A stretch of DNA of 64,000 nt, from positions 15,004,001 to 15,068,000 of the forward strand of contig NC_047031.1 in NCBI RefSeq assembly GCF_902652985.1. The letters are read 5' to 3'. The notes under the pieces are model-generated. The model was given only the letters and a program-made list of their open reading frames with translations. It was not told where the DNA came from and made no database searches. Position numbers and translations under genes: made by a program. This stretch comes from Pecten maximus (Eukaryota). Positions 14,000 to 46,553 of this stretch are shown piece by piece; positions within the stretch are counted from its first letter, which is position 1; every line of letters starts with the position of its first letter.

Positions 14000-14060
14000 A
14001 ATGAATGTAAATAAATGTTGAAATAAAAGTCATGTACAGAAATATTTTGTCTCATTGAAT

Positions 14061-15185: not shown

Positions 15186-15186
15186 G

Positions 15187-19562: not shown

Positions 19563-19589
19563 AACTCGACGAAACAGGTCCTAAACAAG

Positions 19590-22500
19590 ATGGCAGCACA
19601 ATATTTTGACGATTTACTTGATTCTGTGTCAAATGGTGACGAAAATGCAATTCAAACAGTGAGGAATTTGAAAAGGATTTTAAACTCTATAGATTTATCT
19701 CCCGTGAAAAAAAACAGAAGGGAAGATGACGTACTCAAAGATAGACAAAATGTGAATACTTGTGATCAGTGTGGGAAGCAATATTCTACCGATGAAAAGT
19801 TGAAGGCGCACATGAAGAGACATTTTCGTCAATTACCGTGCACAATATGTGGAAAGATATTTAAGGATTCAGGCAACTTAAAGACACACCTGATTTCACA
19901 CAAAAATCAGAGTTCCTACAAATGTCACGTGTGTGACAAATCATTTACGAGGAAATACAACATGAAAATGCACGTGAAAAGCAAACATGGACTGACTGGT
20001 GGAGATCTACCTAATCCTAGCAGTAGTCGGATACCGGAGCATTTCAACACTAATACACCAATACCTTCGAGAATCCAGTCGCCACAGCCGGGTCCGTCCG
20101 ACGTCCAGTCGCCACAGCCGGGCCCGTCCGACGTCCAGTCGCCACAGCCGAGTCCGTCCGACGTCCAGTCGCCACAGCCGGGTCCGTCCGACGTCCAGTC
20201 GCCACAGCCGAGTCCGTCCGACGTCCAGTCGCCACAGCCGGGTCCGTCCGACGTCCAGTCGCCGCAGCCGGGTCCGTCCGACGTCCAGTCGCCGCAGCCG
20301 GGTCCGTCCGACGTCCAGTCGCCACAGCCGGATCCCACCGGTTCTCAACCAACGGGAGAACATACCCATTCGGACGATGTGAGCTTGCAAGGAAATGCTA
20401 ACGTGAGAAACATATATCCAAATTTCAGTGACGATGGTGACATACTCACATTTTTTGCCAGCTCCAAAACGGAAGTGATGTATCATTTAAAACGGTTGTG
20501 TGAGAGATTGAAAGGAATTAAGTGGTATCTTAACATTCGTGTGTCTTTGGAAAAGGAAACTAGAGAAGGTAATGTAGTACAGACCACCCCACATTTCTTG
20601 AGTAAAGCATATATATTAATGCCAAATGAATCTGATCTAGAACACGACGTCAATACAGCTTATCAGAAAATGTTTGCCTCATTTGAGGAGTTTGTACGTA
20701 AAGGGTCTGCATGGGTACTCAAGAAAATCATAAAATTAGAAATACATGTTGCAAAATACTCACCATTGAGTGGTTCTTCTTACATACCAACTCCAACTAC
20801 TTTCAGAACTCATAAATTAGTCAATGTCTTGAATCGTGACGAAAAATGTTTCTTATGGTCCATTTTGGCATCCCTCCATCCCACCGATACCTCTCCCGAA
20901 CGCATCTCTCATTACGAGATGTACGAAAGCGAACTAGACATGACGGGTATCCAATATCCAGTCTCCATCTCCCAAGTACAAAAGTTCGAAAGACAGAACG
21001 ACGTATCTGTAAACGTGTTTGGACTCGAGGATAATACCATTTATCCCATGTACGTGACGAAAACGAAACAGTCGCGACATCACACCAATCTGCTCTTTTT
21101 ACAAGAAGGTGCAAAAACCCATTACTGTTTGATCCCCAATCTAAACATGTTTTTGAGCAGAACGAAAAAATGTCATAGTCTAACACATTTCTGTCAACAT
21201 TGTCTGCAAGGCTTTACCAGTAGCGTTTTATTAAACAAACACGTGGAACTGTGTTCCACCCACAGGACACAGAGAGTTGAATTTCCCGGAGATGATGCTC
21301 TCTTATCGTTTGAGGACTTTCAGAAACAAATGAAAGTACCTTTTGTCATTTATGCCGATTTCGAAACATTTGTAGAACAAATGGATTCGTGTGAGCCAAA
21401 CCCAGACCTTTCAAGTACGACTAAGAATATAAAGTTCGAGCCCTGTGGATTTGGATACAAAGTCGTGTGTATGGAAGATAGGTATACCAAACCACCCGTC
21501 ATTTACAGGGGAGCTGACGTCAGTAAAACGTTTTTAGAATGTATCATAGAAGAAGAAAAACATATCAAAGATGTTTTAGGTCAGCCAGAACCGCTAGTCA
21601 TGTCTCTCCAGGACGAGCAGTCTTTTATGGAGAGTACTCGGTGTCACATCTGTGGTAAGCATTTTACGGAACAGAGTACGGTGGTGCGAGACCACTGTCA
21701 TTTGAGTGGGAAATTTCGCGGTGCTGCACACAACGAATGCAATTTGAAGTACAAATATCCCACTCACATACCTTGCGTGTTTCATAACTTAAAGCGATTC
21801 GATGCTCACATCCTGACTGAAAGTATGGGTCTATTTAAAGACCGCGAAATTCACTGCATTCCTAACACTACGGAACAGTACATTTCGTTTAGTCTGGGTG
21901 ATATCAGATTCATAGATTCGTTCCAATTCATGCCTCAGAGTCTAGAGACTCTGACAGAAAATCTGGCCAAAGAGGGCTTAGTGAAATTCAGTAACTTTTC
22001 TAAGGCATTTACCGAAACAGAAGCCAAATTCCTACTAAGAAAGGGAATATATCCCTACGAATACGTAGACACTGCCGATCGATTCTTAGAACAAAAGTTA
22101 CCACCAAAAAAGAAATTTTATAGCTCGTTGAGTCGCTCACACGTGTCAGATGCAGATTACGCACATGCACAGACCGTGTGGGAGAAAATGGACATTCGAG
22201 ACCTCGGTCAGTATCACGACCTCTATCTCAAGACGGACGTGCTACTGTTGGCCGACGTATTTGAGAACTTCAGAAACATGTGTCTCGATTATTACGGGTT
22301 AGATGCGGCTCACTTCTATACCAGTCCCGGTCTGGCTTGGAGTGCAGCTTTAAAAATGACGAGAGTGAGGTTAGAACTCATCAGAGATCCAGACATGTAT
22401 CTCTTCTTTGAAAACGGAGTGAGAGGAGGTGTTAGCATGATATCTAATAAATACGGTCAAGCTAACAATCCTTACATTCCAGAAACGTATGACCTCTCCC

Positions 22501-23870
22501 AACCACATTCGTACATTATGTACACGGACTGCAATAACTTGTACGGGAAAGCCATGTCAGAACCGTTACCCATAGGTGGGTTTCGGTGGGTCGAAAACCC
22601 ACAATCATTTGATATAACCAAAGTCTCCAAAAACGGAGATCTGGGTTACGTACTGGAAGTAGATCTGGAATATCCAGACGAACTTCACGACAGCCATTCC
22701 GATTACCCCCTCGCACCGGAACGTAAAACAGTCTCAGACAGCGAATTATCACTAACGAGTAAACAGCTGTGGAAAACCTTACATCCTAGCACTAAACACA
22801 CCGATGATAAATTACATGGACGGGTACCGACGGAAAAACTGATTCCCACGCTAGAAAACAAGACGAAATACATCTGTAATTACAGAAATCTGCAGTTGTA
22901 CCTGGAATTGGGTCTAAAAATAACCAAAATCCACCGAATCCTAGAATTCAAGCAGACACCTTGGCTACATCCATACATACAATTCAACACCTCAAAAAGA
23001 GCGTCCTGTAAGAACGAGTTTGAGAAAGATTTCTTTAAACTCATGAACAATGCCGTATTTGGCAAGACGATGGAGAACGTGCGCTCCAGAGTCGACATCA
23101 AGCTGGCACACACGGAAAAGAAACTAAAAAAATACGTGGCAAGGCCTTCGTTTAAAAGATTTACCATCTTTAACGAAGATCTAGTAGCCATCCAGAACGA
23201 CAAAGTCAAACTCGTACTAAACAAACCCGTATATGTTGGACAGACCATTCTAGATCTATCCAAATGTATCATGTACGAGTTTTATTACAAGTACCTAAAA
23301 CCCAAATATGGACATGGAATCAAGCTACTCATGACGGACACGGACAGTCTTTTGTATCACGTCCAATGTCCAGACGTTTATGACGACATGTATCGGGACA
23401 GACATCTGTTCGATCTGTCCAATTATCCGGTCGAACATCACTGTCACGACACGAGAAACAAAAAGATACCGGGATATTTCAAGGACGAAACGGGAAGTGA
23501 GCCCATTGCAGAGTTTGTAGGACTTCGCGCCAAAATGTATTCTTACGTGTACGCCGTGAAAAATAGAACTGAAATAGAAAATCTGGTAGTCCGATGGAAC
23601 GAGATAAAAGAAAAACAGGTAGCTAAAGGTGTTGCAAGAGCAACCATCAGACGTGATCTCAGACACGAAATGTACAGAGACTGTTTATTTGACAACAGAA
23701 CGATAATGACCAAAATGAATTCCATTAGAAGCGACAAACACCAGTTGTACGTTTACACCGTCAACAAATCGGGTCTCTGCGCTTTTGACGACAAACGCTG
23801 GGTCTTACCCAATCGGTATGACACGCTTTCATTTGGTCATTATATAATTTCCGCCATGGGATGGCAATAA
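19590..23870 (+). CDS. polB: Protein-primed family B DNA polymerase with three N-terminal C2H2 fingers and an endonuclease VII-like insert
   Basis: YADFE, FHNLKRFD, DHCHLSGKFRGAAH, YTDCNNLYG, KLMNNAVFGK, MTDTDS; open for 1426 aa. Confidence 0.97.
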   Translation: MAAQYFDDLLDSVSNGDENAIQTVRNLKRILNSIDLSPVKKNRREDDVLKDRQNVNTCDQCGKQYSTDEKLKAHMKRHFRQLPCTICGKIFKDSGNLKTHLISHKNQSSYKCHVCDKSFTRKYNMKMHVKSKHGLTGGDLPNPSSSRIPEHFNTNTPIPSRIQSPQPGPSDVQSPQPGPSDVQSPQPSPSDVQSPQPGPSDVQSPQPSPSDVQSPQPGPSDVQSPQPGPSDVQSPQPGPSDVQSPQPDPTGSQPTGEHTHSDDVSLQGNANVRNIYPNFSDDGDILTFFASSKTEVMYHLKRLCERLKGIKWYLNIRVSLEKETREGNVVQTTPHFLSKAYILMPNESDLEHDVNTAYQKMFASFEEFVRKGSAWVLKKIIKLEIHVAKYSPLSGSSYIPTPTTFRTHKLVNVLNRDEKCFLWSILASLHPTDTSPERISHYEMYESELDMTGIQYPVSISQVQKFERQNDVSVNVFGLEDNTIYPMYVTKTKQSRHHTNLLFLQEGAKTHYCLIPNLNMFLSRTKKCHSLTHFCQHCLQGFTSSVLLNKHVELCSTHRTQRVEFPGDDALLSFEDFQKQMKVPFVIYADFETFVEQMDSCEPNPDLSSTTKNIKFEPCGFGYKVVCMEDRYTKPPVIYRGADVSKTFLECIIEEEKHIKDVLGQPEPLVMSLQDEQSFMESTRCHICGKHFTEQSTVVRDHCHLSGKFRGAAHNECNLKYKYPTHIPCVFHNLKRFDAHILTESMGLFKDREIHCIPNTTEQYISFSLGDIRFIDSFQFMPQSLETLTENLAKEGLVKFSNFSKAFTETEAKFLLRKGIYPYEYVDTADRFLEQKLPPKKKFYSSLSRSHVSDADYAHAQTVWEKMDIRDLGQYHDLYLKTDVLLLADVFENFRNMCLDYYGLDAAHFYTSPGLAWSAALKMTRVRLELIRDPDMYLFFENGVRGGVSMISNKYGQANNPYIPETYDLSQPHSYIMYTDCNNLYGKAMSEPLPIGGFRWVENPQSFDITKVSKNGDLGYVLEVDLEYPDELHDSHSDYPLAPERKTVSDSELSLTSKQLWKTLHPSTKHTDDKLHGRVPTEKLIPTLENKTKYICNYRNLQLYLELGLKITKIHRILEFKQTPWLHPYIQFNTSKRASCKNEFEKDFFKLMNNAVFGKTMENVRSRVDIKLAHTEKKLKKYVARPSFKRFTIFNEDLVAIQNDKVKLVLNKPVYVGQTILDLSKCIMYEFYYKYLKPKYGHGIKLLMTDTDSLLYHVQCPDVYDDMYRDRHLFDLSNYPVEHHCHDTRNKKIPGYFKDETGSEPIAEFVGLRAKMYSYVYAVKNRTEIENLVVRWNEIKEKQVAKGVARATIRRDLRHEMYRDCLFDNRTIMTKMNSIRSDKHQLYVYTVNKSGLCAFDDKRWVLPNRYDTLSFGHYIISAMGWQ
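20074..20331 (+). repeat. 30-bp coding tandem repeat (QSPQPGPSDV x8 plus partial) in PolB
   Basis: Unit TCCAGTCGCCACAGCCGGGTCCGTCCGACG. Confidence 0.97.
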
Positions 23871-24164
23871 AAACCGAACCTCAAATATAGTTTCACAAAT
23901 ATTTATTTCAATTATCGGACCGAAGTCGTCATGTAAAATATTCGCCAAACTCGTTCATCATTGGTGTCGTTTACCAACTAAATTACGACATTATATAGAA
24001 AAGAAAGTTCCAATTTAAAATCAAAAATTTAAGTTTATAAACACAAAGTTGTTAAAAAATAATAAAGTATTCAATTTAGATATAAATGTAGACAGAAAAA
24101 TCACATGGATAGTTTTATTGTTAATCTAAAACAAAACGTTGTATTTAAAAGTCAAAACAAAGCT

Positions 24165-24580
24165 CCTATTTAAAATCAAAAAGTTTCAAAACAAAGTTTC
24201 ATTTTAAAATAAAAAAAAAAAAAACAAAGTTTCATTTTAAAATAATAAACACAAAGTTTCAATTTAAAATCAAAAAGTTGAAAAAAAAAGGTTTTAAAAT
24301 AAAGTTTCAATTTAAAATCAAAAAGTACAAGTTTCATTTTAAAATCAAAAAGTATAAGTTTCATTTTAAAATAAAAAACACAAAGTTTCAATTTAAAATC
24401 AAAAAGTACAAGTTTCAATTTAAAATCAAAAAGTATAAGTTTCATTTTAAAATAAAAAACACAAAGTTTCAATTTAAAATCAAAAAGTTGAAGAAAAAAA
24501 AAGGTTTTAAAATAAAGTTTCACTTTAAAATCAAAAAGTACAAGTTTCAATTTAAAATCAAAAAGTATAAGTTTCAATTG
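24165..24580. repeat. AT-rich degenerate tandem array (about 27-30 bp)
   Basis: AAGTTTCA(A/T)TTTAAAATCAAAAAGTA units. Confidence 0.9.
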
Positions 24581-24629
24581 GTGAAGAAATTCAAAATTAA
24601 TGTTCAAGTCAAATGTATGAGAGACATCA

Positions 24630-24862
24630 CTTAAAGGTTACGTGATTATTATATATTCCAAGGTATGAGAGGTATCATTTAAAGGTTACGTGATTATTAT
24701 ATATTCCAAGGTATGAGAGGTATCATTTAAAGGTTACGTGATTATTATGTATTCCAAGGTATGAGAGGCATCATTTAAAGGTTACGTGATTATTATGTAT
24801 TCCGAGGTATGAGAGGTATCATTTAAAGGTTATGTGATTATTATGTATTCCAAGGTATGAGA
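24630..24862. repeat. 47-bp tandem repeat, about 5 copies
   Basis: TTAAAGGTTACGTGATTATTAT(A/G)TATTCCAAGGTATGAGAGGTATCAT. Confidence 0.93.
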
Positions 24863-25260
24863 GGGATCTATTCTGAATTATGAGAGACATCATGTGAAGT
24901 TTAAAAGGGTACAAGAGGTATCATGTACGCTACAAACTCTGGTGTTAATTAATAGTAAGAGAAATTTTCATATGAATTAAAAATATATCAATATTCTGAA
25001 GAGAGACATCAATTAAAGGTTACGTATTCTTAAAGGTTACGTATTCTTAATGATAGATCACGTGTTGCCATATTTTAATTTACAGTTGATGTATTAAACG
25101 ACATCTGTTCTTACGTAAACAGGTTCGTGTGTGTATAGAGAATGTAATTATTCTACAAAATAACATTGCTTACATTTCCATGTTATTAATTCATTTCACT
25201 TATGTTTTGTATGAAGTCACTGTATTTTCTCAATAAAATGATCATTAAGCCAAAAGTTGT

Positions 25261-25623
25261 TTAGTTCTCCCTACATTCTGAGATACAATCAAACACCGTC
25301 TCTTCATTATACGTGCTAAACACGACTTCTACTTTACAATAATATCGATGTCTGGTTAGCCTTTTCATTTGGGAACGAACTCTCCCATATTTCAACTCTA
25401 CTACACTGTCGACAAAGAAACGAGTTTCGTTTCTGAATTCTGGATAGCGCCTCATTATGGCTTTTACAAGATAACGATAGATGACAGATCGACAGATGTC
25501 GACCTCGTGACAACCGAATAAGATACTGATGAAACATAGATTAGTAGCACAGTACGATGTATCTCTTAATAATACATCCCCGTTTAAATCTACGAGCGAC
25601 TTAGTGAGACGTTTACGATACAT
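25261..25623 (-). CDS. Conserved 120-aa Polinton accessory protein, unknown function
   Basis: Full-length diverged homologue at 59076-59436 in the same position relative to PolB. Confidence 0.8.
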   Translation of the reverse strand: MYRKRLTKSLVDLNGDVLLRDTSYCATNLCFISILFGCHEVDICRSVIYRYLVKAIMRRYPEFRNETRFFVDSVVELKYGRVRSQMKRLTRHRYYCKVEVVFSTYNEETVFDCISECREN

Positions 25624-25680
25624 TATTGAGAGACGTCGATATTATTGTATAATAGAAATGCTATAAGAGAGATAACTCGC

Positions 25681-26296
25681 TTATTGAAACGATGACTGCA
25701 GATATTGGTCAAATTCATCTGCATAACTGTTATTTCCCGCTCCTGCTCCTGACTGGCTCTTGCGAGTATATGGATGCATTCTCCTTTCAGCTACCTGTAG
25801 TAAGAAAGCAATGTAACTAGAACACCAACAGTAGTAAATAATATATTGACGGATGTTTAAATTCGATAATTAACTTACAAGTACGTGTCTTACATCACTA
25901 CTGCCCTGTTCAGGCTTCGGCTTGCTCTCCTCTTGATTTTGACCCTGTGGAAGAATTGAATTAATTTGTACAATGTGCTGTTTAAAATTACATTGAAGCT
26001 ATAAATTGATGATATACATTGTGCTGTTTATAGAAAAATACACTTACCTGATTAATCAAATAGAGGTTATCCTCCAGGTTCCCCCTAAGGTCCGTCAAAT
26101 CTTGATATTCATCAAGTGTTAGGGGTAGGTAGTACTTCTTCTCCTTCTTAGTAATATGCACATAAACCACTCCGTTGAAGAGATTTACGGATATACTAGT
26201 TTGACTATTTAATCTGCTTGACAAGGATGTTTCATTCGAACCATCTTTCTTTGTATGACTCGTAAGTTCAAATTTTCCGTAGATATTTTGTTCCAT
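25681..26296 (-). CDS. Three-exon PC4-like protein (exons 26296-26048, 25944-25879, 25794-25681)
   Basis: ISVNLFNGVVYVHI..LPLTLDEYQDL; two GTAAGT..CAG phase-0 introns; last exon VAERRMHPYTRK..SSFQ*; TATAAAA and CCAAT upstream. Confidence 0.75.
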
Positions 26297-27018
26297 TTTT
26301 GCGCCAGAAGTGACGGTTAGTGGGGTTTGCGCGCTTTTTTATATCACCGATATGGGTGTGAAACTGGGTAGAATCGAAACGACCAATGAAAACCTAGAAT
26401 GGTGAATGTTTAAAATTTTAAATGGTGTTTTCTTGACAAACCGGTTTTTTTTTCTCCACACGACACTTGTGTAACACATTTAATTTTACACTGTGTCAGC
26501 ATTCAGCTCATATGATTCTGTTACGTATACAATTTCGTGTACAACAATTTTATTTTTCTCATTTAAACATATTTATTGTTCTAAATATTAAGGATTGGGT
26601 AAAAGTTATTACAATTTATCGGTACCTTTTACTCTAATGCAGTACATACATGATAACACTTTAATGAAGCATACAAAATTAATACATAAAACCTGTTGCT
26701 GGATTTGATGAAAATTTGCACGGGTTTTCAAACTTCTGTATCAATGGATAGATTTCGATTTTCAGAAAAAAAAAAACTTAATAAATTTATAGATCGTTTT
26801 CACCATTTAGTCAGTAAAATTGTTGTAAAAATGTTGTAAGGCTTTTTTTTTTTTCAATCGATACTTTTTAATTGACGACTTTTTATATTAAATAGTGAAT
26901 TGAAAAATTCTGATTAGGTTAAAGCTGTCACCGTATTCCGGAAAACAGAATTTGGCGGTAATTCTGCACGTGCAAAGCGTGAAACTGAATCGGGTAACTA
27001 GTCCAGTGATGAGCAAAG

Positions 27019-29694
27019 ATGGCTGCAGTACTGCTCTTGCTATTATCGCTCGTACTCGAGGTAGAGGGGTGTATCAACACCCCTCTTCTCTATGCATGCA
27101 ATGTGAACAGAGATGACACGACTCTTGACGTTTTTTATTGCACTATGAATGAGGAATGGTTGGCCCGGGGGGTCAACACGACGTTCACGTTGTGTTGTGG
27201 TCCGGCGCCCCCGGATCAACCATACATCATCATCACCCATTGGCAAGCTGGCGACCGTCTCCTGGGGGAATGCATACATTACTTCCCCCACATCAAGATC
27301 TACCCCCAGGTGGATTGTGACATGGTGGAGGGGTTGGTGGATAATTGTGTAAGTACAATCTATTCTGTTACTAGAAAATAGTTTGTGTATATATAATATC
27401 ACCTAATCGGTTTTACCGTTTAAATATCTATTCAGGTCAACACTTGTACCTTACAAAATCTGACCTCTGTCAGGTGCAGATACAGGAATTTAAGTTAGAT
27501 GGGGTGTGATAATTAATTTTCAGATCCATGAGGAGACCCCCACCACGGTCCATGAGGAGACCCCCACCACGGTCCATGAGGAGACCCCCACCATGGTCCA
27601 TGAGGAGACCTCCACCACGGTCCATGAGGAGACCTCCACCACCGTCCATGAGGAGACCCCCACCACGGTCCATGAGGAGACCTCCACCACGGTCCATGAG
27701 GAGACCTCCACCACCGTCCATGAGGAGACCCCCACCACCGTCCATGAGGAGACCTCCACCACGGTCCATGAGGAGACCCCCACCACCGTCCATGAGGAGA
27801 CCCCTACCACGGTCCATGAGGAGACCCTCACCACGGTCCATGAGGAGACCCCCACCACCGTCCATGAGGAGACCCCCACCACCGTCCATGAGGAGACCTC
27901 CACCACCGTCCATGAGGAGACCTCCACCACCGTCCATGAGGAGACCCCCACCACCGTCCATGAGGAGACCTCCACCACGGTCCATGAGGAGACCTCCACC
28001 ACGACCGCGGTGAAGGTGCTGTTGGTTTTGGCAGTACTACTACCATTGATGTTTAGTATGTATAATCTCATACTTTCTTTTTAATGTGGTCTTGGTCAGT
28101 TTTTTTTTTTTTTTTTTTTTTTAATGTTAGTAAAATACAATATCAGTGCTTTCCAAAAACATCTGACAAATATGATGAAAGCTCATTTGGCTCGATAATA
28201 AGTAAATATATCATAAGCATGAACAATAGCCATGTACATTTTCGATCCAACAGAATTTTCTCAGACAACTTTCAGGATTCTGAAAAAAAAAAATTCATAC
28301 ATTTTAGTCAAATGCTCTTAACTGAGAAATAATGTATTCCTTTCCAGTTTTAGTCTTCCTGCTGATTAGGCGAAGGGCTTACAGGGGTCACAAGCCCTAT
28401 AGGATGAGGGAAGAAGGAGACATCTGTAAGTATTTCACATAAGATTTTGCCTTTCATGAATCTGTAATGTAAACAAACTATCTCTCCTGACTAATTCATA
28501 ACATTTCATCATCTATCATTGATCATTTTAACCTAGATGTTATGAGAGTTTCCTGTATCAATGATGATTGTGTATGTATTCCAGTCTGGTATTTCAGTGA
28601 GTTGTCTCCCCTAGATCATAAAAGTTTTGTTCTGTTTTCAGTCAGCATTGAAGATCAATCTGATACAAGTAAGTTAATTTTAATTCCTAATGACGGTTAA
28701 AACATATTTTAAGGTTTTGGTAATCAGATGCTAAAAATTATTTTGCTAGAGTCTCCTTCAGTCTTGAAGAAATAACAATTGATAAAAGTACAGGTAAACA
28801 GTAACACTAGACTCGCCAGTGCTGCTACCAACTATTCAGCTTTTTTCATCAAAGCTTGGTCAGCTTCACATGTCTCAAGGTTAATAACTATAGCTGAATT
28901 ACCAAAATATGATGATCATGATCATTTTTCTGTCAAAATATGGAACAGCGAGTTCAGACAAAGATTTGGATCTCTTGGACTTTTTTATCTGAGAAAATGA
29001 GCTTCAGCTTAAGGAATTTTCAACCTCCGAGTAATGTGTATACATTTCTGTTATTTTGATTCTATAGTATGTGTATTATTTTAATTGTAGTCGAAATGAA
29101 CAGACTGGACCCCCCTCCCTCTGACCATTATGAAGATTCAGGTAATTAACTACTTATAAGTTGATAGCAGTGTTAAATATATTTCATGAATATGAATTGT
29201 GTGTATTTACCTTGTAGAATTATGTCTGCCTAGTTTTGACCAATAACAAGGTTTGATATCTGTATGACATTATTTATTTTATATTGTAGATGAGACCATT
29301 CCGAAGATGGTGGAGTCATCAATTGATGGTATGTATATTGGATAATTATGGTCAGAAGTGTTTATACTGCGGTTAATTTACTTATTCGGTATTATTTATA
29401 TCTGATATTATTTGATTTAATTATGGTGAGTAAAAGAGTAGTTGATTTATTTGGTATTATGTTACAGTTTCACAGATTGACTTGCCGCCCTCCTCCTCCT
29501 CCTCCTCAACTGACACACACACAGGTAAGAATTTTATAAGTTCGAAGAGTTAAATTCCTCTAGTAAACAATTTCCTGAAATATTTCAAAGCATCTTCATC
29601 ATACCTTACCACTTAACCAACAGATAATAATTTGTATGTTATAGTTGTGGAGGTGGAGCCCATCTGGCTGAGAAGTGGGAGGAGGAAGCATTAA
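27019..29694 (+). CDS. Multi-exon type I membrane glycoprotein GP1 (signal peptide, Cys domain, mucin-like stalk, TM, acidic tail)
   Basis: In-frame GT-AG exons 27019-27348, 27524-28055, 28348-28425, then 29091-29141, 29290-29328, 29468-29524, 29645-29694; three small exons in 28537-28792 have uncertain phase. Confidence 0.78.
27527..28006 (+). repeat. 24-bp coding tandem repeat HEET(P/S)TTV x20
   Basis: Unit CATGAGGAGACC(C/T)CCACCAC(G/C)GTC. Confidence 0.97.
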
Positions 29695-29905
29695 GGAGTA
29701 AGTTTTTTTCTTTATAATTCTCATTCACATGCTTGTGTAATCACTTACACCGTACGCTTTTCTGTGATGTTTTCAATTTAATAATTCATTTGAGTGGATA
29801 GTGTGTACAATACATTACTACTTATTCAATATAAAATGGTAAATAATCTGTTTGTATGTTTTAGGAAGGAAGACGACAAAAGAATTTGGATTTTCTGATT
29901 GTGTG

Positions 29906-29943
<38 letters not shown>

Positions 29944-31317
29944 GGTGATTTATGTGTATACATATATATAATAAGCTTTTCTGTGATGTCTTTTAATGTG
30001 GTAATTCATTTTAGGTGGGTGTATGAGAGTGTATGTATGTGAGTGTATAAGGATGTGTGGGAGGGTGTGTATGAAGGTAAGAGTCTGTGCCTTTTAATTT
30101 ACACCAATGATTTTTATACCAATGTTTAATTATATCTTATTGTGATTTTTTTTATACCAATGTTTAATTATCTATCTAATTGTGATTTTTATACCAATGT
30201 TTAATTATATATTTTGTTGTGATTGATACTTATTCTAATTCTCAGGGAGAACATGTGTGTCCATTTTAGTTACGTGTACCAAATAAATGTTTTGATTCGT
30301 AATCTATGTTTTCTTGTTCTTAATGTTTACTCAACAGTCGAGATTTGTATATGTAGATTCATTGATATATTTTACATACCTTGTGAAGAGTGAACGTTAT
30401 CAGTTTCCCTCATTGGGAAACATGTGTTGGATTTGGATGACGCTAGTCTTCATACCTCGGAAGTAAATCAGTGTTTTGAACGGCGCCATGTTTACGTGTA
30501 GAACATGTGGGATGCGGTTAACGTCCTTGACATTGACTTCACGGTGTATTGGTTTTGGACGATGCCACTCTACATACCTCGGGAGGGGGATCTGTGTTTT
30601 TGGACGATGTTATGTTTATGTGGTATGACTCGTACTGCTTCTCAAAATAGACTGTCTATTTCATAACAAGATCTAGATTCCTTTATGTATTTTACATACC
30701 TCGCGAAAAGTGAATGTAATCGGTTTCCCTCTGTAACGTCTCGGACGACACCATCCGTGTTTTGGACGACGCCATGTTAACGTCCTTAATACTGACTTCA
30801 CGGTGTATTGCTTTTGGACGATGCCACTCTACATACCTCAGGAGGGGAATCGGGGTACATGTATGGTTCAACGCTCTCTCGGATAGGCACTTGTGTGCTT
30901 TCTCAAAATAGACTGTCGATTTCATAACAAGACCAGGACATTACTTTGAAAACGTGGGGCACTTTATTATACATTTTACTGTGCATAGTCTAGTGATACC
31001 CGTTTACACAGGTTAAATAAAAGTTGAAGAAGGTCTCTCAGCAAAATGCTAAGTACGTTTATACAGCATAGCAGTTTCAACTTCCAATTTCTTATTTATA
31101 AACATGCCTCCCCATCATGTATTCAATCATTTAAATATTATTGGTTAACATTATTTTCCCCCCCTTTAATTCCGTTATTGTCTTGCTATGTCGACTCCCA
31201 TCTCCATTTATCATATTTACCGATTGGTATTTATGATTTTACAGGCTTTGGACTGTCTGACATTTATTGTCAGGCTGGATTAGAGTCGTCCGTCCGTCTG
31301 TCTGTCCGACACTCTTG

Positions 31318-31614
31318 CTAGTTATGTTTAGCTAGCAAGATTTGGACAACTTCCCCGTAAGGAAGGTTGTCCTGTTGTCGGACCTGCTCCACCCACTCCC
31401 GGGTCTCTTTAACCATAGAAGGGGAAAGCATTTGTTTGCTTTCCACCCTCACAGGCATTAATCTGTCTTCATATTCATATCGAGGACCATTTATTTCCTC
31501 TCTATGCATGGTGACACATAGTTGTAGCTCTCTATGGAGAGCTGCAACTTTATTTTTTCGAAGAAACAAAAGAATTCTCCGAAACCTTTCAAGAGGTGAT
31601 GTTTGAACATCCAT
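31318..31614 (-). CDS. Hypothetical protein (about 98 aa)
   Basis: Protein-like composition, GC-richer than flanks; no homologue recognised. Confidence 0.4.
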   Translation of the reverse strand: MDVQTSPLERFRRILLFLRKNKVAALHRELQLCVTMHREEINGPRYEYEDRLMPVRVESKQMLSPSMVKETREWVEQVRQQDNLPYGEVVQILLAKHN

Positions 31615-31754
31615 GATCCCCTTAAAAGTGATTCTACACAAAACTTAACTATCCGAGCAACACTCGACCTTGCAAAACGCACTAATGTATAGTTTCATTC
31701 GATATTGCCTGATCCAATTTCAGGTAATTATCGCTACTTTTTACCAATCTATTT

Positions 31755-32215
31755 TCTCGGCAGGACAGTGTCGGGAGGTGACGGTATACGTTCTGTTCGC
31801 ATCACCTTGTACTGACACGTACATATCAAGACTTCATCTTTATGTTGATGACCACCGAGGTGTGTAATTATTAATATTATCTCGGCACGACAGTGTCGGG
31901 AGGTGACTGTACGTTCTGTTAGATCAACGATCGTGTACTGACACGTACCACCGTGTCAAGACTTCATCTTTATGTTGATGACCACCGAGGTGTGTATTAA
32001 TGGTCTTGGGTTACCGTGGTAGCGATCACCGGGGAAAATGATCCGGTTTCATCTCTATTTGAATAGAGTAAAAAACTAACATGTTAACATGCTAGCTGCT
32101 CTTACATGCTAAACTAACCTGTTACATGCTATCAACAACTAACATGTTAACATGCTAGCTGCTCTTACATGCTAAACTAACCTGTTACATGCTATCAACA
32201 ACTAACATGTTAGCA
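31755..32215. repeat. Two short tandem duplications (about 125 bp x2; 63 bp x2.3)
   Basis: 31755-31866 versus 31880-31996; AACTAACATGTTAACATGCTAGCTGCTC.. units at 32074-32215. Confidence 0.88.
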
Positions 32216-32315
32216 TGCATGTTTGAACACGCCTAAAATACTACTACTCTTTGCGTAAGTGTTGTCCCCCTTCCTAGCCCAGGGCATGCGCATTAGACTC
32301 AATTAGGAAAAAACA

Positions 32316-33250
32316 ATGGCGGTCACCGTAGTGTACCTGCTGTTTCTCACATGTGCAGCTTTTGCTTCAGTTAATGGTGACATCGTTGATGAATGCCACA
32401 TCACACATAATTTGTGTAGGTTACCCGAGTTGCCTAATGGATCTTCGCTCACCCTTCGTAAGTAATAACAATCTTACACTTAAATTGACTTAATTGACTT
32501 TGATGACCTAACCCGGTTATCGGTATTTATCATAAAAATCTATACATGCCCCTGTGTCAGGATACACGTGTATAAGCTTATATAAGCCTATTAACATGAG
32601 GAATATATTAAAACAATCTCCATATATTGGTATCTTTAAACATATTACAAGGCAAGCAATGTGCATTAATGAATATTCGTTCGAATTATTGATTCATGTT
32701 AGATCTATATGTAAAAGTAGCATCAACTGAATGTGACATCATCTTTCAATAAAAGTGTTCTTATTATAGAGCGTCAATGGCCTCATCCTATGATGAGAAT
32801 CTCTGGTTGGAGGTCGACATATAAACTAAGGGTAGATGAGCAGAAAAGACTGCGGAAGATTGTCTTCTTTGGGGCTGGTGTCGATTGTACCAACCTCATA
32901 ATTGACCCTGTCGTGAAGATATTTTTCAACAAGGTCCAGTTTTGTGTAAGAATGTTTTGATATATCATCTAAAAGCATTACAATCAAACTTTAGACACTA
33001 TTGTTAGTGATTGATATATATATATATGATAGGAATAACAAATGGAATGTCTATTTTAAAGAAAATATGATCAGTTGATAGAACTCTGACAGAATGAAAA
33101 GAAAACAAAGTGAAACCCTTATTATAATCATTAACTTTATTAAGACATAATTTGTGAACGAATTTCCATTTGATAATGTAATTAAATTGGTATACATGTT
33201 ATAGTAATGCATTTTTTTTAATTCTTATTAGATCTCAACAACAACAGCAC
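32316..33250 (+). pseudogene. GP2: spliced signal-peptide protein distantly related to GP1, truncated in exon 3
   Basis: Exons 32316-32457 (MAVTVVYLLFLTCAAFASVNG..), 32770-32945 (..ISGW..VDC..FC), then ISTTTAP from 33232. Confidence 0.65.
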
Positions 33251-33360
33251 CCGACTCGCAACATTTCTGCCCTGCAGGTAGGGCGTAAGAATTGTACCTG
33301 CTGCCCCCATTGCATGATTGTAAGAGGCGACTAAACTTGGGATCTTATCTTTTCTCTTCT
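33248..33360. mobile_element. Short SINE-like repeat fragment at a deletion junction
   Basis: GTAAGAGGCGACTAA motif recalled from invertebrate retro-repeats; both flanking genes are truncated here. Confidence 0.45.
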
Positions 33361-33363
33361 AAT

Positions 33364-33510
33364 ATCGCCGATTTAAACTCACAATTTTTCATAAATTAGT
33401 TGAATTTTTGCCATCTCTTCAGTATGGCGATTTTGCCACTCTAAGTAGACTTTCATAATTATAGAATATCCACACAGGATTTGTGCTATGATGATGATGA
33501 TGTCAATCAT
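33364..33510 (-). pseudogene. 5' half of the TM-coiled-coil gene (intact copy at 52978-53403)
   Basis: 33364-33793 is near-identical to 53256-53681. Confidence 0.85.
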
Positions 33511-34203
33511 TTTGAAGTTTAATATTCAAAGTGGTCAGTTTGTCTTGAGAAATACTTTTATATTATAAGATAGTAGTAGTTAGTTCTTAGTGGTCATTTT
33601 TTGTGTAAACCATTCGAGTCGCCATTTCGATGTTTTAAACGATCCTTTTTGTGGTTGAATTAGAAAAAAAATGTTTTTTTTTTTAGACATATACTATATA
33701 TATATATATACACAATACTGACAAGGAAAAAAAACAATAGAAAAAAACCTGTTTTAGTATGGGGGTTACATATCGAAATAGGTCATCAGGATTGTTAACA
33801 CGTAAAAAAAAAAACAATCTCATTTATGGTTTCTTATATGAATTATCTGATCTACTAAAAAACACTGTTTCTGTATAGGTTACAATGAAACTTAAAGCAC
33901 GCTGACTATAGTGAGTTTCTATTCAGACTTATTCATCCGGATCCATTCACCCCGTGTTTATAGATAATAAAATATTAGAGCCTACGAGTTACTTCCCTTC
34001 CATTACATATTTTATATATATATATATATATATATAGGTAAAAAAGTGAAAACAAAATCGAGATGGTGGATTGTATTAGCTTTTTGCCTATAATACTTCC
34101 TTTAAAATCAATAATAGTTTCGATTGATATTATTAAAATGGAACGTCGATTTAATTTTCATGCGAGTTTTCTATGTCGATCCCCACAGCCACTTCCGGTA
34201 AAG

Positions 34204-34544
34204 ATGGCTAGCACTATGCTGCATCATGTTCTGCTCGTTATAAGTCTGATAACGTATTGCATGTCTTCACCAATTCCGCTGTCATGGGCTTGCCCGATGC
34301 AGCAACATGAATCGGAGTCGTCATATTTTGACGCAATTGTTTGTCGGATGGATTGGGCAAGTCTAGTTTTTCTTTGTGTGCCAACTCCCTCCCTAACCAG
34401 CCTAATCTCATCGTGAAGGGATGGAAACCATACTATCAACTGAATACAGATTGTTCGCCCATTCTCCACCTCACCATCACAATACAGCCGACAAATCAAG
34501 TGAACTTTGAAGGAATTATAGGAACGCTCGTCACCAATTGCCAG
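34204..34544 (+). pseudogene. GP3 exon 1: paralogue of the GP1 Cys domain, frameshift near 34350
   Basis: Signal peptide, PLSWAC..CRM, then FSLC..PNQP..KGW..DC..TLVTNCQ followed by GT. Confidence 0.72.
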
Positions 34545-34854
34545 GTATATAGCTAGACGATTTATATTACGGGTTTAAGATCCGGTCAGGGTACGAGTGA
34601 AAAAAATTATCATCCTTCGTCGTTTATGTTATATATATCCTACAAGAAATATTTAAACCGAGATTAAATTTCATTCTTATATTTAATGCATATGTATATC
34701 CGACCGATACTAAACGTCCACTAAAATGAATTGATATCAATAATATACTGTAAGCAATAATGTGATTGTCTCCCTTTCTATACATGTCGCACGCACGGGA
34801 GGCCGTCCTTAAATGACCTTAGATGTTAATAGGGCGTTAAACAAAATAAACCAA

Positions 34855-35354
34855 NNNNNNNNNNNNNNNNNNNNNNNNNNNNNNNNNNNNNNNNNNNNNN
34901 NNNNNNNNNNNNNNNNNNNNNNNNNNNNNNNNNNNNNNNNNNNNNNNNNNNNNNNNNNNNNNNNNNNNNNNNNNNNNNNNNNNNNNNNNNNNNNNNNNNN
35001 NNNNNNNNNNNNNNNNNNNNNNNNNNNNNNNNNNNNNNNNNNNNNNNNNNNNNNNNNNNNNNNNNNNNNNNNNNNNNNNNNNNNNNNNNNNNNNNNNNNN
35101 NNNNNNNNNNNNNNNNNNNNNNNNNNNNNNNNNNNNNNNNNNNNNNNNNNNNNNNNNNNNNNNNNNNNNNNNNNNNNNNNNNNNNNNNNNNNNNNNNNNN
35201 NNNNNNNNNNNNNNNNNNNNNNNNNNNNNNNNNNNNNNNNNNNNNNNNNNNNNNNNNNNNNNNNNNNNNNNNNNNNNNNNNNNNNNNNNNNNNNNNNNNN
35301 NNNNNNNNNNNNNNNNNNNNNNNNNNNNNNNNNNNNNNNNNNNNNNNNNNNNNN
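34855..35354. other. Assembly gap
   Basis: 500 N. Confidence 1.
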
Positions 35355-36109
35355 ACCCCATACCGCAGCCGAGACCTCTTACCGGGAGAGGACACGGTGT
35401 TGTATTTTCCTAAAAAAACAATGAAGTTAATCGAATTCTGGTTGATAGCATCGGACAAACAGAAGAAAGGCATTCTGGTTAACGTCAACAGATTCACAAC
35501 TCAAGTTCATCATAGAAACCATTCATACGTAGCAGCGGATAACATTTCCATTTCTGAGGAGGATAAAAAGAAAATAGCCAAACACAAAGTGGGCATATGC
35601 AAAGTGCTTGGCGAGAGGGATCAGTCGACGTCAGAGAAGGCGGAGACTACTCGCAGTGAGTAAAATATTACCTGTGTTCTTTACAAACTATTTGACATGG
35701 CTAAAGCAATGATATTAATACCAAAAACGAAATACGACGACATCATCAAACACGAGAACGATTCAACTAATACACACCAAGCACCATCGAACATGATGTC
35801 AATCCATCTGATGATAAAACGGCCCATTACCACGAAGAAATCCAGCGTAGAATTGACAAATAATATCGATAAGAGTAAAACCGACCCACCTGATACGCCT
35901 GACGCAATCCACGAGCCCAGTCTAGAATCGATCAATAGGGAGCCTGTGTCACTCAAACGGAGCATGCGCAGAAAAACAAAAAGTCAGCGAGGCGGAAAAC
36001 TTGCTTTAATAAGACCACGCCTCCCCAATTTCAGAGAAACCTAAAAACGAAGAAACGTAAGTGGTTGTCATTCAACATATAGAACTCGACGAAACAGGTC
36101 CTAAACAAG

Positions 36110-39100
36110 ATGGCAGCACAATATTTTGACGATTTACTTGATTCTGTGTCAAATGGTGACGAAAATGCAATTCAAACAGTGAGGAATTTGAAAAGGATTT
36201 TAAAACTCTATAGATTTATCTCCCGTGAAAAAAACAGAAGGGAAGATGACGTACTCAAAGATAGACAAAATGTGAATACTTGTGATCAGTGTGGGAAGCA
36301 ATATTCTACGATGAAAAGTTGAAGGCGCACATGAGAGACATTTTCGTCAATTACCGTGCACAATATGTGGAAAGATATTTAAGGATTCAGGCAACTTAAA
36401 GACACAACCTGATTTCACACAAAAAATCAGAGTTCCTACAAATGTCACGTGTGTGACAAATCATTTACGAGGAAATACAACATGAAAATGCACGTGAAAA
36501 GCAAACATGGACTGACTGGTGGAGATCTACCTAATCCTAGCAGTAGTCGGATACCGGAGCATTTCAACACTAATACACCAATACCTTCGAGAATCCAGTC
36601 GCCACAGCCGGGTCCGTCCGACGTCCAGTCGCCACAGCCGAGTCCGTCCGACGTCCAGTCGCCACAGCCGGGTCCGTCCGACGTCCAGTCGCCACAGCCG
36701 GGTCCGTCCGACGTCCAGTCGCCCACAGCCGAGTCCGTCCGACGTCCAGTCGCCACAGCCGGGTCCGTCCGACGTCCAGTCGCCGCAGCCGGGTCCGTCC
36801 GACGTCCAGTCGCCGCAGCCGGGTCCGTCCGACGTCCAGTCGCCACAGCCGGATCCCACCGGTTCTCAACCAACGGGAGAACATACCCATTCGGACGATG
36901 TGAGCTTGCAAGGAAATGCTAACGTGAGAAACATATATCCAAATTTCAGTGACGATGGTGACATACTCACATTTTTTGCCAGCTCCAAAACGGAAGTGAT
37001 GTATCATTTAAAACGGTTGTGTGAGAGATTGAAAGGAATTAAGTGGTATCTTAACATTCGTGTGTCTTTGGAAAAGGAAACTAGAGAAGGTAATGTAGTA
37101 CAGACCACCCCACATTTCTTGAGTAAAGCATATATATTAATGCCAAATGAATCTGATCTAGAACACGACGTCAATACAGCTTATCAGAAAATGTTTGCCT
37201 CATTTGAGGAGTTTGTACGTAAAGGGTCTGCATGGGTACTCAAGAAAATCATAAAATTAGAAATACATGTTGCAAAATACTCACCATTGAGTGGTTCTTC
37301 TTACATACCAACTCCAACTACTTTCAGAACTCATAAATTAGTCAATGTCTTGAATCGTGACGAAAAATGTTTCTTATGGTCCATTTTGGCATCCCTCCAT
37401 CCCACCGATACCTCTCCCGAACGCATCTCTCATTACGAGATGTACGAAAGCGAACTAGACATGACGGGTATCCAATATCCAGTCTCCATCTCCCAAGTAC
37501 AAAAGTTCGAAAGACAGAACGACGTATCTGTAAACGTGTTTGGACTCGAGGATAATACCATTTATCCCATGTACGTGACGAAAACGAAACAGTCGCGACA
37601 TCACACCAATCTGCTCTTTTTACAAGAAGGTGCAAAAAACCCATTACTGTTTGATCCCCAATCTAAACATGTTTTTGAGCAGAACGAAAAAATGTCATAG
37701 TCTAACACATTTCTGTCAACATTGTCTGCAAGGCTTTACCAGTAGCGTTTTATTAAACAAACACGTGGAACTGTGTTCCACCCACAGGACACAGAGAGTT
37801 GAATTTCCCGGAGATGATGCTCTCTTATCGTTTGAGGACTTTCAGAAACAAATGAAAGTACCTTTTGTCATTTATGCCGATTTCGAAACATTTGTAGAAC
37901 AAATGGATTCGTGTGAGCCAAACCCAGACCTTTCAAGTACGACTAAGAATATAAAGTTCGAGCCCTGTGGATTTGGATACAAAGTCGTGTGTATGGAAGA
38001 TAGGTATACCAAACCACCCGTCATTTACAGGGGAGCTGACGTCAGTAAAACGTTTTTAGAATGTATCATAGAAGAAGAAAAACATATCAAAGATGTTTTA
38101 GGTCAGCCAGAACCGCTAGTCATGTCTCTCCAGGACGAGCAGTCTTTTATGGAGAGTACTCGGTGTCACATCTGTGGTAAGCATTTTACGGAACAGAGTA
38201 CGGTGGTGCGAGACCACTGTCATTTGAGTGGGAAATTTCGCGGTGCTGCACACAACGAATGCAATTTGAAGTACAAATATCCCACTCACATACCTTGCGT
38301 GTTTCATAACTTAAAGCGATTCGATGCTCACATCCTGACTGAAAGTATGGGTCTATTTAAAGACCGCGAAATTCACTGCATTCCTAACACTACGGAACAG
38401 TAACATTTCGTTTAGTCTGGGTGATATCAGATTCATAGATTCGTTCCAATTCATGCCTCAGAGTCTAGAGACTCTGACAGAAAATCTGGCCAAAGAGGGC
38501 TTAGTGAAATTCAGTAACTTTTCTAAGGCATTTACCGAAACAGAAGCCAAATTCCTACTAAGAAAGGGAATATATCCCTACGAATACGTAGACACTGCCG
38601 ATCGATTCTTAGAACAAAAGTTACCACCAAAAGAGAAATTTTATAGCTCGTTGAGTCGCTCACACGTGTCAGATGCAGATTACGCACATGCACAGACCGT
38701 GTGGGAGAAAATGGACATTCGAGACCTCGGTCAGTATCACGACCTCTACCTCAAGACGGATGTGCTACTGTTGGCCGACGTATTTGAGAACTTCAGAAAC
38801 ATGTGTCTCGATTATTACGGGTTAGATGCGGCTCACTTCTATACCAGTCCCGGTCTGGCTTGGAGTGCAGCTTTAAAAATGACGAGAGTGAGGTTAGAAC
38901 TCATCAGAGATCCAGACATGTATCTCTTTTTTGAAAACGGAGTGAGAGGTGGAGTTAGCATGATATCAAACAAATACGCTCAAGCTAACAATCCTTATAT
39001 TCCAGAAACTTACGATCTCTCCCAACCACATTCGTACATCATGTACACGGACTGCAATAATTTGTACGGAAAGGCAATGTCGGAGCCGTTGCCAATCGGT

Positions 39101-40395
39101 GGGTTTCGGTGGGTGGACAATCCACAAACATTTGACATAACCAAAGTCTCCAAACACGGAGATCTGGGTTACGTACTGGAAGTAGATCTGGAATATCCAG
39201 ACGAACTTCACGACAGCCATTCCGATTACCCCCCTCGCACCGGAACGTAAAAACAGTCTCAGACAGCGAATTATCACTAACGAGTAAACAGCTGTGGAAA
39301 ACCTTACATCCTAGCACTAAACACACCGATGATAAATTACATGGACGGGTACCGACGGAAAAACTGATTCCCACGCTAGAAAACAAGACGAAATACATCT
39401 GTAATTACAGAAATCTGCAGTTGTACCTGGAATTGGGTCTAAAAATAACCAAAATCCACCGAATCCTAGAATTCAAGCAGACACCTTGGCTACATCCATA
39501 CATACAATTCAACACCTCAAAAAGAGCGTCCTGTAAGAACGAGTTTGAGAAAGATTTCTTTAAACTCATGAACAATGCCGTATTTGGCAAGACGATGGAG
39601 AACGTGCGCTCCAGAGTCGACATCAAGCTGGCACACACGGAAAAGAAACTAAAAAAATACGTGGCAAGGCCTTCGTTTAAAAGATTTACCATCTTTAACG
39701 AAGATCTAGTAGCCATCCAGAACGACAAAGTCAAACTCGTACTAAACAAACCCGTATATGTTGGACAGACCATTCTAGATCTATCCAAATGTATCATGTA
39801 CGAGTTTTATTACAAGTACCTAAAACCCAAATATGGACATGGAATCAAGCTACTCATGACGGACACGGACAGTCTTTTGTATCACGTCCAATGTCCAGAC
39901 GTTTATGACGACATTTATCGGGACAGACATCTGTTCGATCTGTCCAATTATCCGGTCGAACATCACTGTCACGACACGAGAAACAAAAAGATACCGGGAT
40001 ATTTCAAGGACGAAACGGGAAGTGAGCCCATTGCAGAGTTTGTAGGACTTCGCGCCAAAATGTATTCTTACGTGTACGCCGTGAAAAATAGAACTGAAAT
40101 AGAAAATCTGGTAGTCCGATGGAACGAGATAAAAGAAAAACAGGTAGCTAAAGGTGTTGCAAGAGCAACCATCAGACGTGATCTCAGACACGAAATGTAC
40201 AGAGACTGTTTATTTGACAACAGAACGATAATGACCAAAATGAATTCCATTAGAAGCGACAAACACCAGTTGTACGTTTACACCGTCAACAAATCGGGTC
40301 TCTGCGCTTTTGACGACAAACGCTGGGTCTTACCCAATCGGTATGACACGCTTTCATTTGGTCATTATATAATTTCCGCCATGGGATGGCAATAA
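36110..40395 (+). pseudogene. polB: pPolB of copy B2, broken by single-base indels
   Basis: Fragments match 19590-23870; the indels may be sequencing errors. Confidence 0.92.
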
Positions 40396-41789: not shown

Positions 41790-42152
41790 TTAGTTCTCCC
41801 TACATTCTGAGATACAATCAAACACCGTCTCTTCATTATACGTGCTAAACACGACTTCTACTTTACAATAATATCGATGTCTGGTTAGCCTTTTCATTTG
41901 GGAACGAACTCTCCCATATTTCAACTCTACTACACTGTCGACAAAGAAACGAGTTTCGTTTCTGAATTCTGGATAGCGCCTCATTATGGCTTTTACAAGA
42001 TAACGATAGATGACAGATCGACAGATGTCGACCTCGTGACAACCGAATAAGATACTGATGAAACATAGATTAGTAGCACAGTACGATGTATCTCTTAATA
42101 ATACATCCCCGTTTAAATCTACGAGCGACTTAGTGAGACGTTTACGATACAT
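41790..42152 (-). CDS. Copy of the conserved 120-aa protein
   Basis: Identical translation to 25261-25623. Confidence 0.8.
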   Translation of the reverse strand: MYRKRLTKSLVDLNGDVLLRDTSYCATNLCFISILFGCHEVDICRSVIYRYLVKAIMRRYPEFRNETRFFVDSVVELKYGRVRSQMKRLTRHRYYCKVEVVFSTYNEETVFDCISECREN

Positions 42153-42209
42153 TATTGAGAGACGTCGATATTATTGTATAATAGAAATGCTATAAGAGAG
42201 ATAACTCGC

Positions 42210-46517: not shown

Positions 46518-46553
<36 letters not shown>

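Follow-up and report, generated by a model that had tools for sequence, protein, structure and literature searches.

Polintons of the scallop Pecten maximus carry a family of spliced genes for predicted type I membrane proteins

It is still debated whether animal Polintons (Mavericks) have a viral lifestyle, and the accessory genes described from them are for the most part compact, with products that stay inside the cell. Analysed here is a 64,000-nucleotide stretch of the genome of the scallop Pecten maximus (C17:15004001-15068000, NC_047031.1), referred to as the window, which is a nest of Polintons with polymerase debris and two cores, one at 1-5400 on the minus strand and the other at 14022-23870 on the plus strand, and which holds three genes or gene pieces for predicted membrane proteins, GP1, GP2 and GP3. 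Nematode Mavericks carry wasp and krma, spliced genes beside an intronless core that specify proteases and kinases, lie in a variable zone next to the terminal repeat, between the left repeat and the integrase, and are transferred between species (bioRxiv 10.1101/2022.07.12.499685). Nematode Polintons also encode the fusogen MFUS-1/PC1, of 866 aa, with a signal peptide, one transmembrane (TM) helix and a herpes gB-like class III fold. Adintoviruses exemplify animal Polintons with accessory genes for host control (PLA2X, GasderminX, Cupiennin, Oncoids, IAP/Bcl2), and a spliced type I glycoprotein is not among the accessory genes named in the available text (PMC8502044). Vertebrate Mavericks have been reported as intronless (PMC8097293), and of all eukaryotes, bivalves are reported to be richest in viral regions of this kind (bioRxiv 10.1101/2025.04.19.649669). 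Adenoviruses, which are relatives of Polintons, carry outside their core the diverse, fast-evolving E3 CR1 and E3/19K proteins, with a signal peptide and a TM segment (PMC4858740).

A first-pass annotation of the window had proposed that GP1, GP2 and GP3 are a family of intron-containing membrane glycoprotein genes on or beside a Polinton. A diversified family inside Polintons, spliced and with predicted type I membrane proteins as its products, has held up, on the evidence of elements with complete ends on C2 and C13, of Polinton genes close to 22 of 30 family loci, of GP1 exon joints in RNA, and of selection. The GP family is very probably genuine Polinton cargo, whatever its role, and the GP gene marks a subset of one Polinton clade. 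The further proposal, that the three genes form an adenovirus E3-like cassette of one element, has to be abandoned, since GP1 and GP2 lie in nested elements, GP3 is what remains of a broken gene from a third subfamily, and most of the elements examined carry one such gene.

GP genes and their place in Polintons

GP1 is an intact gene of eight exons (27019-27348, 27524-28055, 28348-28425, 28642-28668, 29091-29141, 29290-29328, 29468-29524 and 29645-29694) with canonical splice sites, and the translation of the model (387 aa) is identical to RefSeq XP_033725665.1 (LOC117315537, Pecten maximus). The product consists of a signal peptide, a 93-aa Cys-capped head with seven Cys, a 161-aa Thr/Ser/Glu stalk, a helix, a basic juxtamembrane stretch and an acidic tail that terminates RSGRRKH. 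Hydropathy peaks at residue 1 and at 275-295, corresponding to the predicted signal peptide and a single membrane helix, and the stalk (43% Ser+Thr) includes 20 copies of an 8-aa repeat, HEET(P/S)TTV. Exon 1 ends TGT/gtaagt in phase 0, and a phase-1 intron falls within the hydrophobic helix. The basic juxtamembrane motif Y-R-(M/V/I)-R is found in the GP1 tail (28348-28425) and in copies at C467 and C13:2.35 Mb, these being the three GP1-type copies for which the next exon was found. The basic stretch recalls the FERM-binding tails of host membrane proteins.

A 16-kb stretch is present twice at 99% identity (18858-34854 and 35377-51457), flanking a 500-N gap, and may be either a genuine tandem duplicate or an assembly doubling. 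Four sequencing runs (24 listed) were mapped to 44604-55100, a region that starts past the stalk array of the second GP1 copy and so covers the joints from exon 3 onward; run X6 is recorded as RNA and the other three were assumed to be RNA. GP1 is transcribed and spliced, as the first-pass annotation had predicted: contigs join exons 3-4 and 4-5 (run X3) and exons 5-6 (run X1) at the predicted bases. A joint of exons 6 and 8 is also present in the contigs, and exon 7 may be hidden in a skipped repeat. Three runs carry the copy-1 sequence at the point where copy 2 goes out of frame. A spliced antisense RNA also crosses the 3' exons and was seen in two studies; the pieces flanking its intron are without a long open reading frame (ORF), and it could be speculated that it is regulatory, or a small-RNA precursor from an element graveyard.

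GP1 has pPolB on one side and, on the other, the right terminal repeat that ends at 32248, in an element that has the integrase, adenain-like protease and packaging ATPase of Polintons and, judged by its family-B motifs, a protein-primed family B polymerase (a 1435-aa ORF). The window holds only the right repeat of this element; its left counterpart would be located in the gap at 11690-12189, so that a target duplication is unreadable. The inverse-side partner of the right repeat (94-99% alike in pieces) is found at the left end of a sister piece, at C17:15123817-15124111, beyond a stretch with a BIR gene of which 64 bp equal window positions 12190-12253, and also at C345:4075-4369, where a core-less derivative (C345:1-4369) consists of just ORF 25261, ORF 25988 and a 99% copy of GP1 between element ends. 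GP2 starts 68 bp past the end of the GP1 element, and at 32249, immediately behind the repeat, similarity to GP2-type elements sets in, from which it follows that a GP1-type element was inserted just upstream of GP2 and that two elements are nested. Elsewhere, GP2 lies inside elements with both ends, of 23.5 kb at C2:43749146-43772625 and 16 kb at C13:3974717-3990707; each is bounded by terminal inverted repeats starting AGTAG, and so with the AGT start of Polinton ends, and by an exact 6-bp duplication (TCAATT and GCTTAC, respectively). An intron-bearing gene is thus enclosed by terminal repeats in the GP2 elements, by its predicted exons, and splicing is seen in the RNA joints of GP1.

Thirty family loci, defined as profile matches at E <= 0.05 in the genome stretches examined, were scored for linkage, with the window doubles counted, so that the loci are not independent; further GP2-type matches at C22:177961, C17:15160627, C3978 and C791 were left out. 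In this genome, the linkage foreseen by the first-pass annotation is found at 22 loci that lie no more than 10 kb from a Polinton gene; for 16 of the 30, there is a core gene within 20 kb. A homologue of ORF 25988, a neighbour of GP1, lies within 3 kb at 9 of 11 loci of one family subset (33 matches in 918 Mb). The ATPase gave 150 scored matches out of 221 candidates in the same 918 Mb, and those of GP1-type elements are 87-91% identical to that of the window, those of GP2-type elements 51-68%. Among the elements examined, one GP gene each is the rule; the exceptions are C2, with GP2 present as a tandem pair, and C3964, where a GP2-type gene stands beside a GP3-type piece.

The GP2 gene of the window is truncated (Table 1) by an insertion whose short repeat (33267-33360) reaches a contig depth of about 10,000 in two runs. 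Its head is split by an extra phase-1 intron and closes with a Cys at a phase-0 donor (TGT/gtaaga), after which the stalk begins with ISTTT. The complete layout is seen in copies at C2, C13 and C17:18.39 Mb, with five exons, a Pro/Ser/Asn/Thr stalk and a helix split in phase 1; the last exon ends KKKLS in the window and in one C2 copy, and KKEIILESCI in two other copies. GP3, the nearest relative of which is on C6 (55%), was considered as an intact gene and rejected, with exon 1 frameshifted in both window copies, the frame from the ATG stopping at codon 71, and stops in all three frames of the stalk exon.

The gene structures first proposed therefore need some revision. Signal peptides are indeed predicted at all three ATGs, which are followed by hydrophobic N-termini, and the glycosylation sequons of GP1 (N53-T-T) and GP2 (N41-G-S) are at similar positions, although the sequon is not invariant, being missing in loci L005 and L007 and in the C17:18.39 Mb copy of GP2. 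A phase-0 intron leading into a stalk is confirmed for GP1 and GP2, but the GP2 stalk is cut after ~11 codons and that of GP3 is closed in all frames. The phase-1 intron in the hydrophobic segment, claimed for GP1 and GP3, is found in GP1, whereas the exon behind GP3 (52375-52583) is elsewhere the last exon of GP2; and the peptide quoted for GP3 spans two reading frames rather than one.

Head domain, relatives and selection

A common Cys-containing domain of about 90 aa had been claimed for all three proteins. For GP1 and GP3 this was substantiated by a non-circular search, in which a GP1-only profile found GP3 at E 4.5e-4 among 15,004 ORFs, but GP1 and GP2 are only weakly alike when compared directly (hhalign probability 4.7, E 0.0086) and are bridged by outside proteins. 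These score on both subfamily profiles (P0006 23.7/29.2 bits, P0007 19.1/25.4, P0008 20.3/22.0, P0010 22.2/17.8) and exceed all of 550 shuffles (maxima 13.8/9.2 bits), with some circularity remaining, as they were first found by a joint profile. Conserved head positions in mature numbering are Cys24, Phe39, Trp58, Leu64 and the closing Cys. A GT donor follows the closing Cys directly at 17/17 loci tried (10/11 in another check), a Ser/Thr/Pro repeat stalk, unrelated in sequence between members, was found at 12 of 18 places (C2 counted twice), and the phase-1 donor in the membrane helix at all nine locus-peptide pairs tried.

AlphaFold2 gave a confident small domain of short strands for the head, with pLDDT (predicted local distance difference test) values of 82.5 and 85.8, but in a second job only 2 of 5 models agreed; a trimer prediction scored 0.00, the fold itself being uncertain. 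Pfam gave no family at E <= 1 for any of 22 aligned members, and for the GP pieces only low-complexity stalk matches below the cut-off; a sequence search of PDB found nothing below E 0.36, and Foldseek nothing at E <= 0.001 in PDB and BFVD. The best VIA-align rows (Z 3.7 and 3.8) are to a filamentous haemagglutinin secretion domain and lie below the meaningful level, and the weak fold rows (Z <= 3.8) are mostly parallel beta-helix, leucine-rich repeat and STAS folds, with no immunoglobulin (Ig)-type rows among them. A Cys-capped parallel beta-solenoid may be taken from these models as a lead only, with no match behind it, and the absence of a fold match does not establish a new fold. The structure and profile check envisaged at the outset thus came out in part, with GP1 and GP3 alignable by profile and no fold named by Foldseek. 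Candidates from the ESM Atlas, nematode DUF870/TTR-52 (0.85) and unnamed mollusc clusters (0.76-0.78), were below the bar and rejected.

When 1.84 billion proteins were searched with the profile, 13 matched, namely GP1, 11 unnamed relatives and one (P0009, 4056 aa, matched over 35 columns) that was dropped as chance. Ten of the 13 were traced, and these, except the dropped one, come from Logan or JGI/IMG sources; P0014 is a twin of P0002. Word-index searches returned only GP1 itself and P0004, P0008 had no match in the scallop genome, and no related locus for GP1, P0007, the P0007/P0008 pair or the major capsid was found on viral or metagenome contigs. On the tree (long branches, midpoint root) the outside relatives interleave with the scallop subfamilies, so that the family appears older than these insertions. 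The domain ends in C-V-S/R in 8 of the 11 relatives, which would fit read-through of the same splice donor; ORF-based annotation would therefore miss such genes, and more spliced Polinton genes may have escaped notice.

Compared with the element at C17:14.51 Mb, the GP1 head has a synonymous divergence (dS) of 0.84 and a ratio of non-synonymous to synonymous divergence (dN/dS) of 0.28, against 1.00 and 0.14 for pPolB and 1.07 and 0.05 for the ATPase. Other GP1-type pairs give dN/dS 0.15-0.48 where dS is measurable (7/10 pairs). From these comparisons of coding sequence, GP1 is seen as inherited with the core and under purifying selection, evolving faster than the core.

Layout of the window

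Table 1. Features of the window (positions are window coordinates)
Feature	Position	Strand	Remark
GP1, intact 8-exon gene	27019-29694	+	exon model
GP1, second copy	43547-46306	+	23 stalk repeats; frame lost from exon 5 on
Intron of antisense spliced RNA crossing GP1 3' exons	44878-46989	-	joint in runs X3 and X6; GT-AG sites; fits copy 1 equally
GP2 exons 1-2 (32316-32457, 32770-32945) and first ~11 codons of exon 3 (from 33232)	32316-33266	+	truncated; second Polinton lineage
High-copy short repeat (33267-33360) and 430-bp duplicate of 53256-53681	33267-33793		interrupts GP2
GP2, second copy	48923-49873	+	identically truncated
GP3 exon 1	34204-34544	+	frameshifted within head domain; remainder lost at assembly gap 34855-35354
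GP3, second copy: exon 1 (50807-51147) and 33-bp-repeat stalk exon (51582-51830)	50807-51830	+	exon 1 frameshifted; stalk exon broken
Last exon of GP2-type genes	52375-52583	+	behind GP3; ends KKKLS-stop in window
Right terminal repeat of GP1 element	31750-32248		inner 130-bp and 63-bp repeats; ends ACTACTACT
Right terminal repeat, second copy	48357-48855		
Polinton core of GP1 element	14022-23870	+	ORF list and Pfam
Integrase (rve and chromo)		+	core gene; Pfam rve E 4.5e-13
Putative minor capsid	15061	+	core gene; no Pfam match
Core protein	15591	+	core gene
Putative major capsid	16016	+	core gene; no Pfam match
Adenain-like protease	start 17347	+	core gene; Peptidase_C5 E 2.2e-4
A32-like ATPase	start 18176	+	core gene; Pox_A32 E 0.005, below family cut-off
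ORF 19146		+	in GP1 element core
pPolB	19563-23870	+	1435-aa ORF; family-B motifs read in sequence
ORF 25261	25261-25641	-	conserved right-arm ORF, habitual GP gene neighbour; dN/dS 0.26
ORF 25988	25662-26296	-	second right-arm gene; three predicted exons

Within the core of the GP1 element, capsid-sized ORFs are in the expected places and kept in all sister elements, though Pfam gave nothing on them; the capsid and pPolB names are our presumption from position, size and motifs, Pfam having no match for these identities. The only Pfam matches of pPolB are three C2H2 fingers near its N-terminus and an endonuclease VII insert; it also has a 30-bp repeat that encodes SPQPGPSDVQ. A Pfam search with ORFs 25261, 25988 and 52978 gave no family. 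ORF 25988, presumably PC4-like although Pfam had no match, looks like a second spliced Polinton gene on its predicted exons, a donor following its domain having been found in 4 of 6 other copies examined. ORF 52978 (52978-53418, minus strand; 146 aa) has a hydrophobic N-terminus and a coiled-coil-like middle and is kept beside GP2 inside terminal repeats. BIR (IAP-type) genes are found on the left arm of these Polintons at 4855-5226 (minus), 12197-12391 (plus) and 13440-13661 (plus), with one or two per element.

Other features of the window include a 145-bp satellite array (55199-57082) that splits a pPolB remnant, long interspersed nuclear element (LINE) reverse-transcriptase copies at 59990-62557 and 7918-8883, and a pogo/Tc5-like fragment at 6029-6783; Rfam had no match within 24000-34854. 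A further 99% duplicate meets at a gap (window 7312-11689 and C17:15124112-15128254), from either recent segmental duplication or assembly doubling. The family members and their Polintons are concentrated in a few regions of nested, decayed elements (C17:14.4-16.6 Mb, C13:0-4 Mb and C22).

Possible role and comparison with known systems

By analogy, the GP protein probably helps the element to handle host cells, similar to some adenovirus surface proteins. The host spliceosome and secretory pathway would produce it, and an O-glycosylated repeat stalk would raise the small disulphide-capped, beta-strand-rich head above the membrane, where the head may bind a host receptor or lectin and the stalk may shield neighbouring proteins, while a basic tail with a conserved Tyr could anchor or sort it. 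More specifically, the product of the spliced gene is predicted to be a type I protein on the surface of the carrier cell that would dampen or redirect recognition by the host, a role to which we give somewhat less than an even chance. The core diversifies more slowly than head and stalk, a pattern expected of a host-facing protein, and the elements also carry an IAP-type BIR gene and therefore already hold host-control genes. Judged by its host-like arrangement of exons, the gene may go back to a host receptor gene that was captured long ago as DNA. It is also possible, if still more tentative, that a mollusc polintovirus clade, independently of adenoviruses, evolved a spliced terminal arm for host control that serves immune evasion or virus exclusion against the innate immunity of invertebrates, namely a mucin-stalked protein with a new small beta-solenoid head, expressed from integrated copies in healthy animals.

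Several observations weigh against a selected, host-facing Polinton protein. For eight of the 30 loci, the stretch examined showed no marker within 10 kb (two of these are linked by other evidence), and a GP gene lies 5-15 kb downstream in only 2 of 20 ATPase-anchored loci and in none of the 8 more distant of them, a count tempered by the fact that right-arm genes of any kind were recognisable in just 6 of the 20 stretches. Many family copies are broken, and four recent GP2 copies have mixed dN/dS values (0.43-2.07) on few changes, which are uninformative. Unspliced or antisense RNA makes up much of the cover of GP1, three of the four runs were taken as RNA by guess, and no joint of GP2 or GP3 was seen in the four runs, missing cover being no proof of silence. 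No fold or family match names a function (best Z 3.8, no row with Z >= 5), and we know of no virion or infection of these elements.

Alternatively, an integrated element could express the protein for superinfection exclusion or host defence, so that the receptor through which related Polintons or other viruses enter is masked or trapped, whether on the cell surface or in the endoplasmic reticulum (ER); this is unlikely, but several features would suit it. GP1 RNA occurs in tissue runs of four studies and therefore comes from integrated copies, GP1 is retained in the core-less C345 derivative, and on the tree the lineage-specific heads fit lineage-specific receptors. The KKKLS ending of GP2, in the window and one C2 copy, is of the KKXX type, which retrieves type I proteins to the ER (PMC2120234). 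KKXX was rejected as a family trait, and with it ER retrieval, since two GP2 copies end KKEIILESCI and GP1 ends RRKH; moreover, carrying a GP2-type gene did not keep a GP1-type element from inserting into one such element in the window. A head on a mucin stalk is also the layout of enveloped-virus attachment glycoproteins, and GP might serve a membrane-wrapped particle or cell-to-cell spread, as nematode Mavericks encode a fusogen with a signal peptide and single TM helix (bioRxiv 2022.07.12.499685) and the weak fold rows are parallel beta-solenoids including an adhesin secretion domain (Z 3.7-3.8). Such a function is improbable for a multi-exon gene that lies outside the intronless structural module and on only a subset of elements; the ORF list of the GP1 element has no fusogen-sized ORF, and the fold rows fall below the meaningful level.

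There is little probability, too, that GP is a captured host gene riding passively, or useful to the host in the manner of the nematode wasp and krma cargo. Its exon phases are host-like, intron-bearing host-derived cargo has been described in nematode Mavericks (bioRxiv 10.1101/2022.07.12.499685), core genes are not nearby for the C11, C22:75 kb and C3964 copies, and the 11 outside relatives are sequences without genomic context. A passenger would not be expected, however, to remain under purifying selection over saturated dS in the same slot across elements whose ATPases are 51-91% identical to that of the window, nor its scallop subfamilies to interleave with outside sequences, and an intact ordinary host locus was not found, the C11 copy being broken. 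Where GP is located and what it binds would distinguish between elements that control host immunity, that keep out competitors and that form wrapped particles.

Among known systems, host mucin-stalk receptors (CD34/CD164/TIM-like) have the same arrangement of head exon, mucin exon, TM intron, short phase-1 tail exons and basic juxtamembrane stretch, but the GP head matches no known domain and the genes are element-borne. With E3 proteins GP1 shares a signal peptide, a single TM helix and a glycosylation site, all predicted (hydropathy at 1 and 275-295; N53). E3/19K has a dilysine tail, and one GP2 subset can likewise end KKXX. The E3 CR1 ectodomain is Ig-like; the weak fold rows for GP include none of Ig type, although GP may belong to a family that they do not list. 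No sequence relation to the E3 CR1/19K families was found, none of the 22 members having a Pfam match; the host is an invertebrate without a major histocompatibility complex, and GP genes come mostly one per element and not as a paralogue array in one unit, the trio of the window stemming from nested, rearranged elements. The parallel to E3 CR1 is likely one of role through convergence, E3-like without being a member of the E3 family. MFUS-1/PC1 is likewise Polinton-encoded, with a signal peptide and one TM helix, but the class III ectodomain and length of about 870 aa of Maverick fusogens have no counterpart in GP1, whose 387 aa include a head of 93 aa and a repeat stalk and whose gene has seven introns. 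The accessory genes of adintoviruses are echoed by the BIR/IAP genes of the scallop elements. Closest in organization are wasp and krma, from which the scallop GP gene differs in that it encodes a membrane protein and has kept a single position, with pPolB on one side and the right repeat on the other, in element lineages that have diverged. A literature search, which did not extend to subscription papers, Repbase entries and supplements, found no account of the GP family. Intron-bearing Maverick cargo and a TM fusogen were already known from nematodes; what is new here is a selected, spliced and element-borne membrane protein family.

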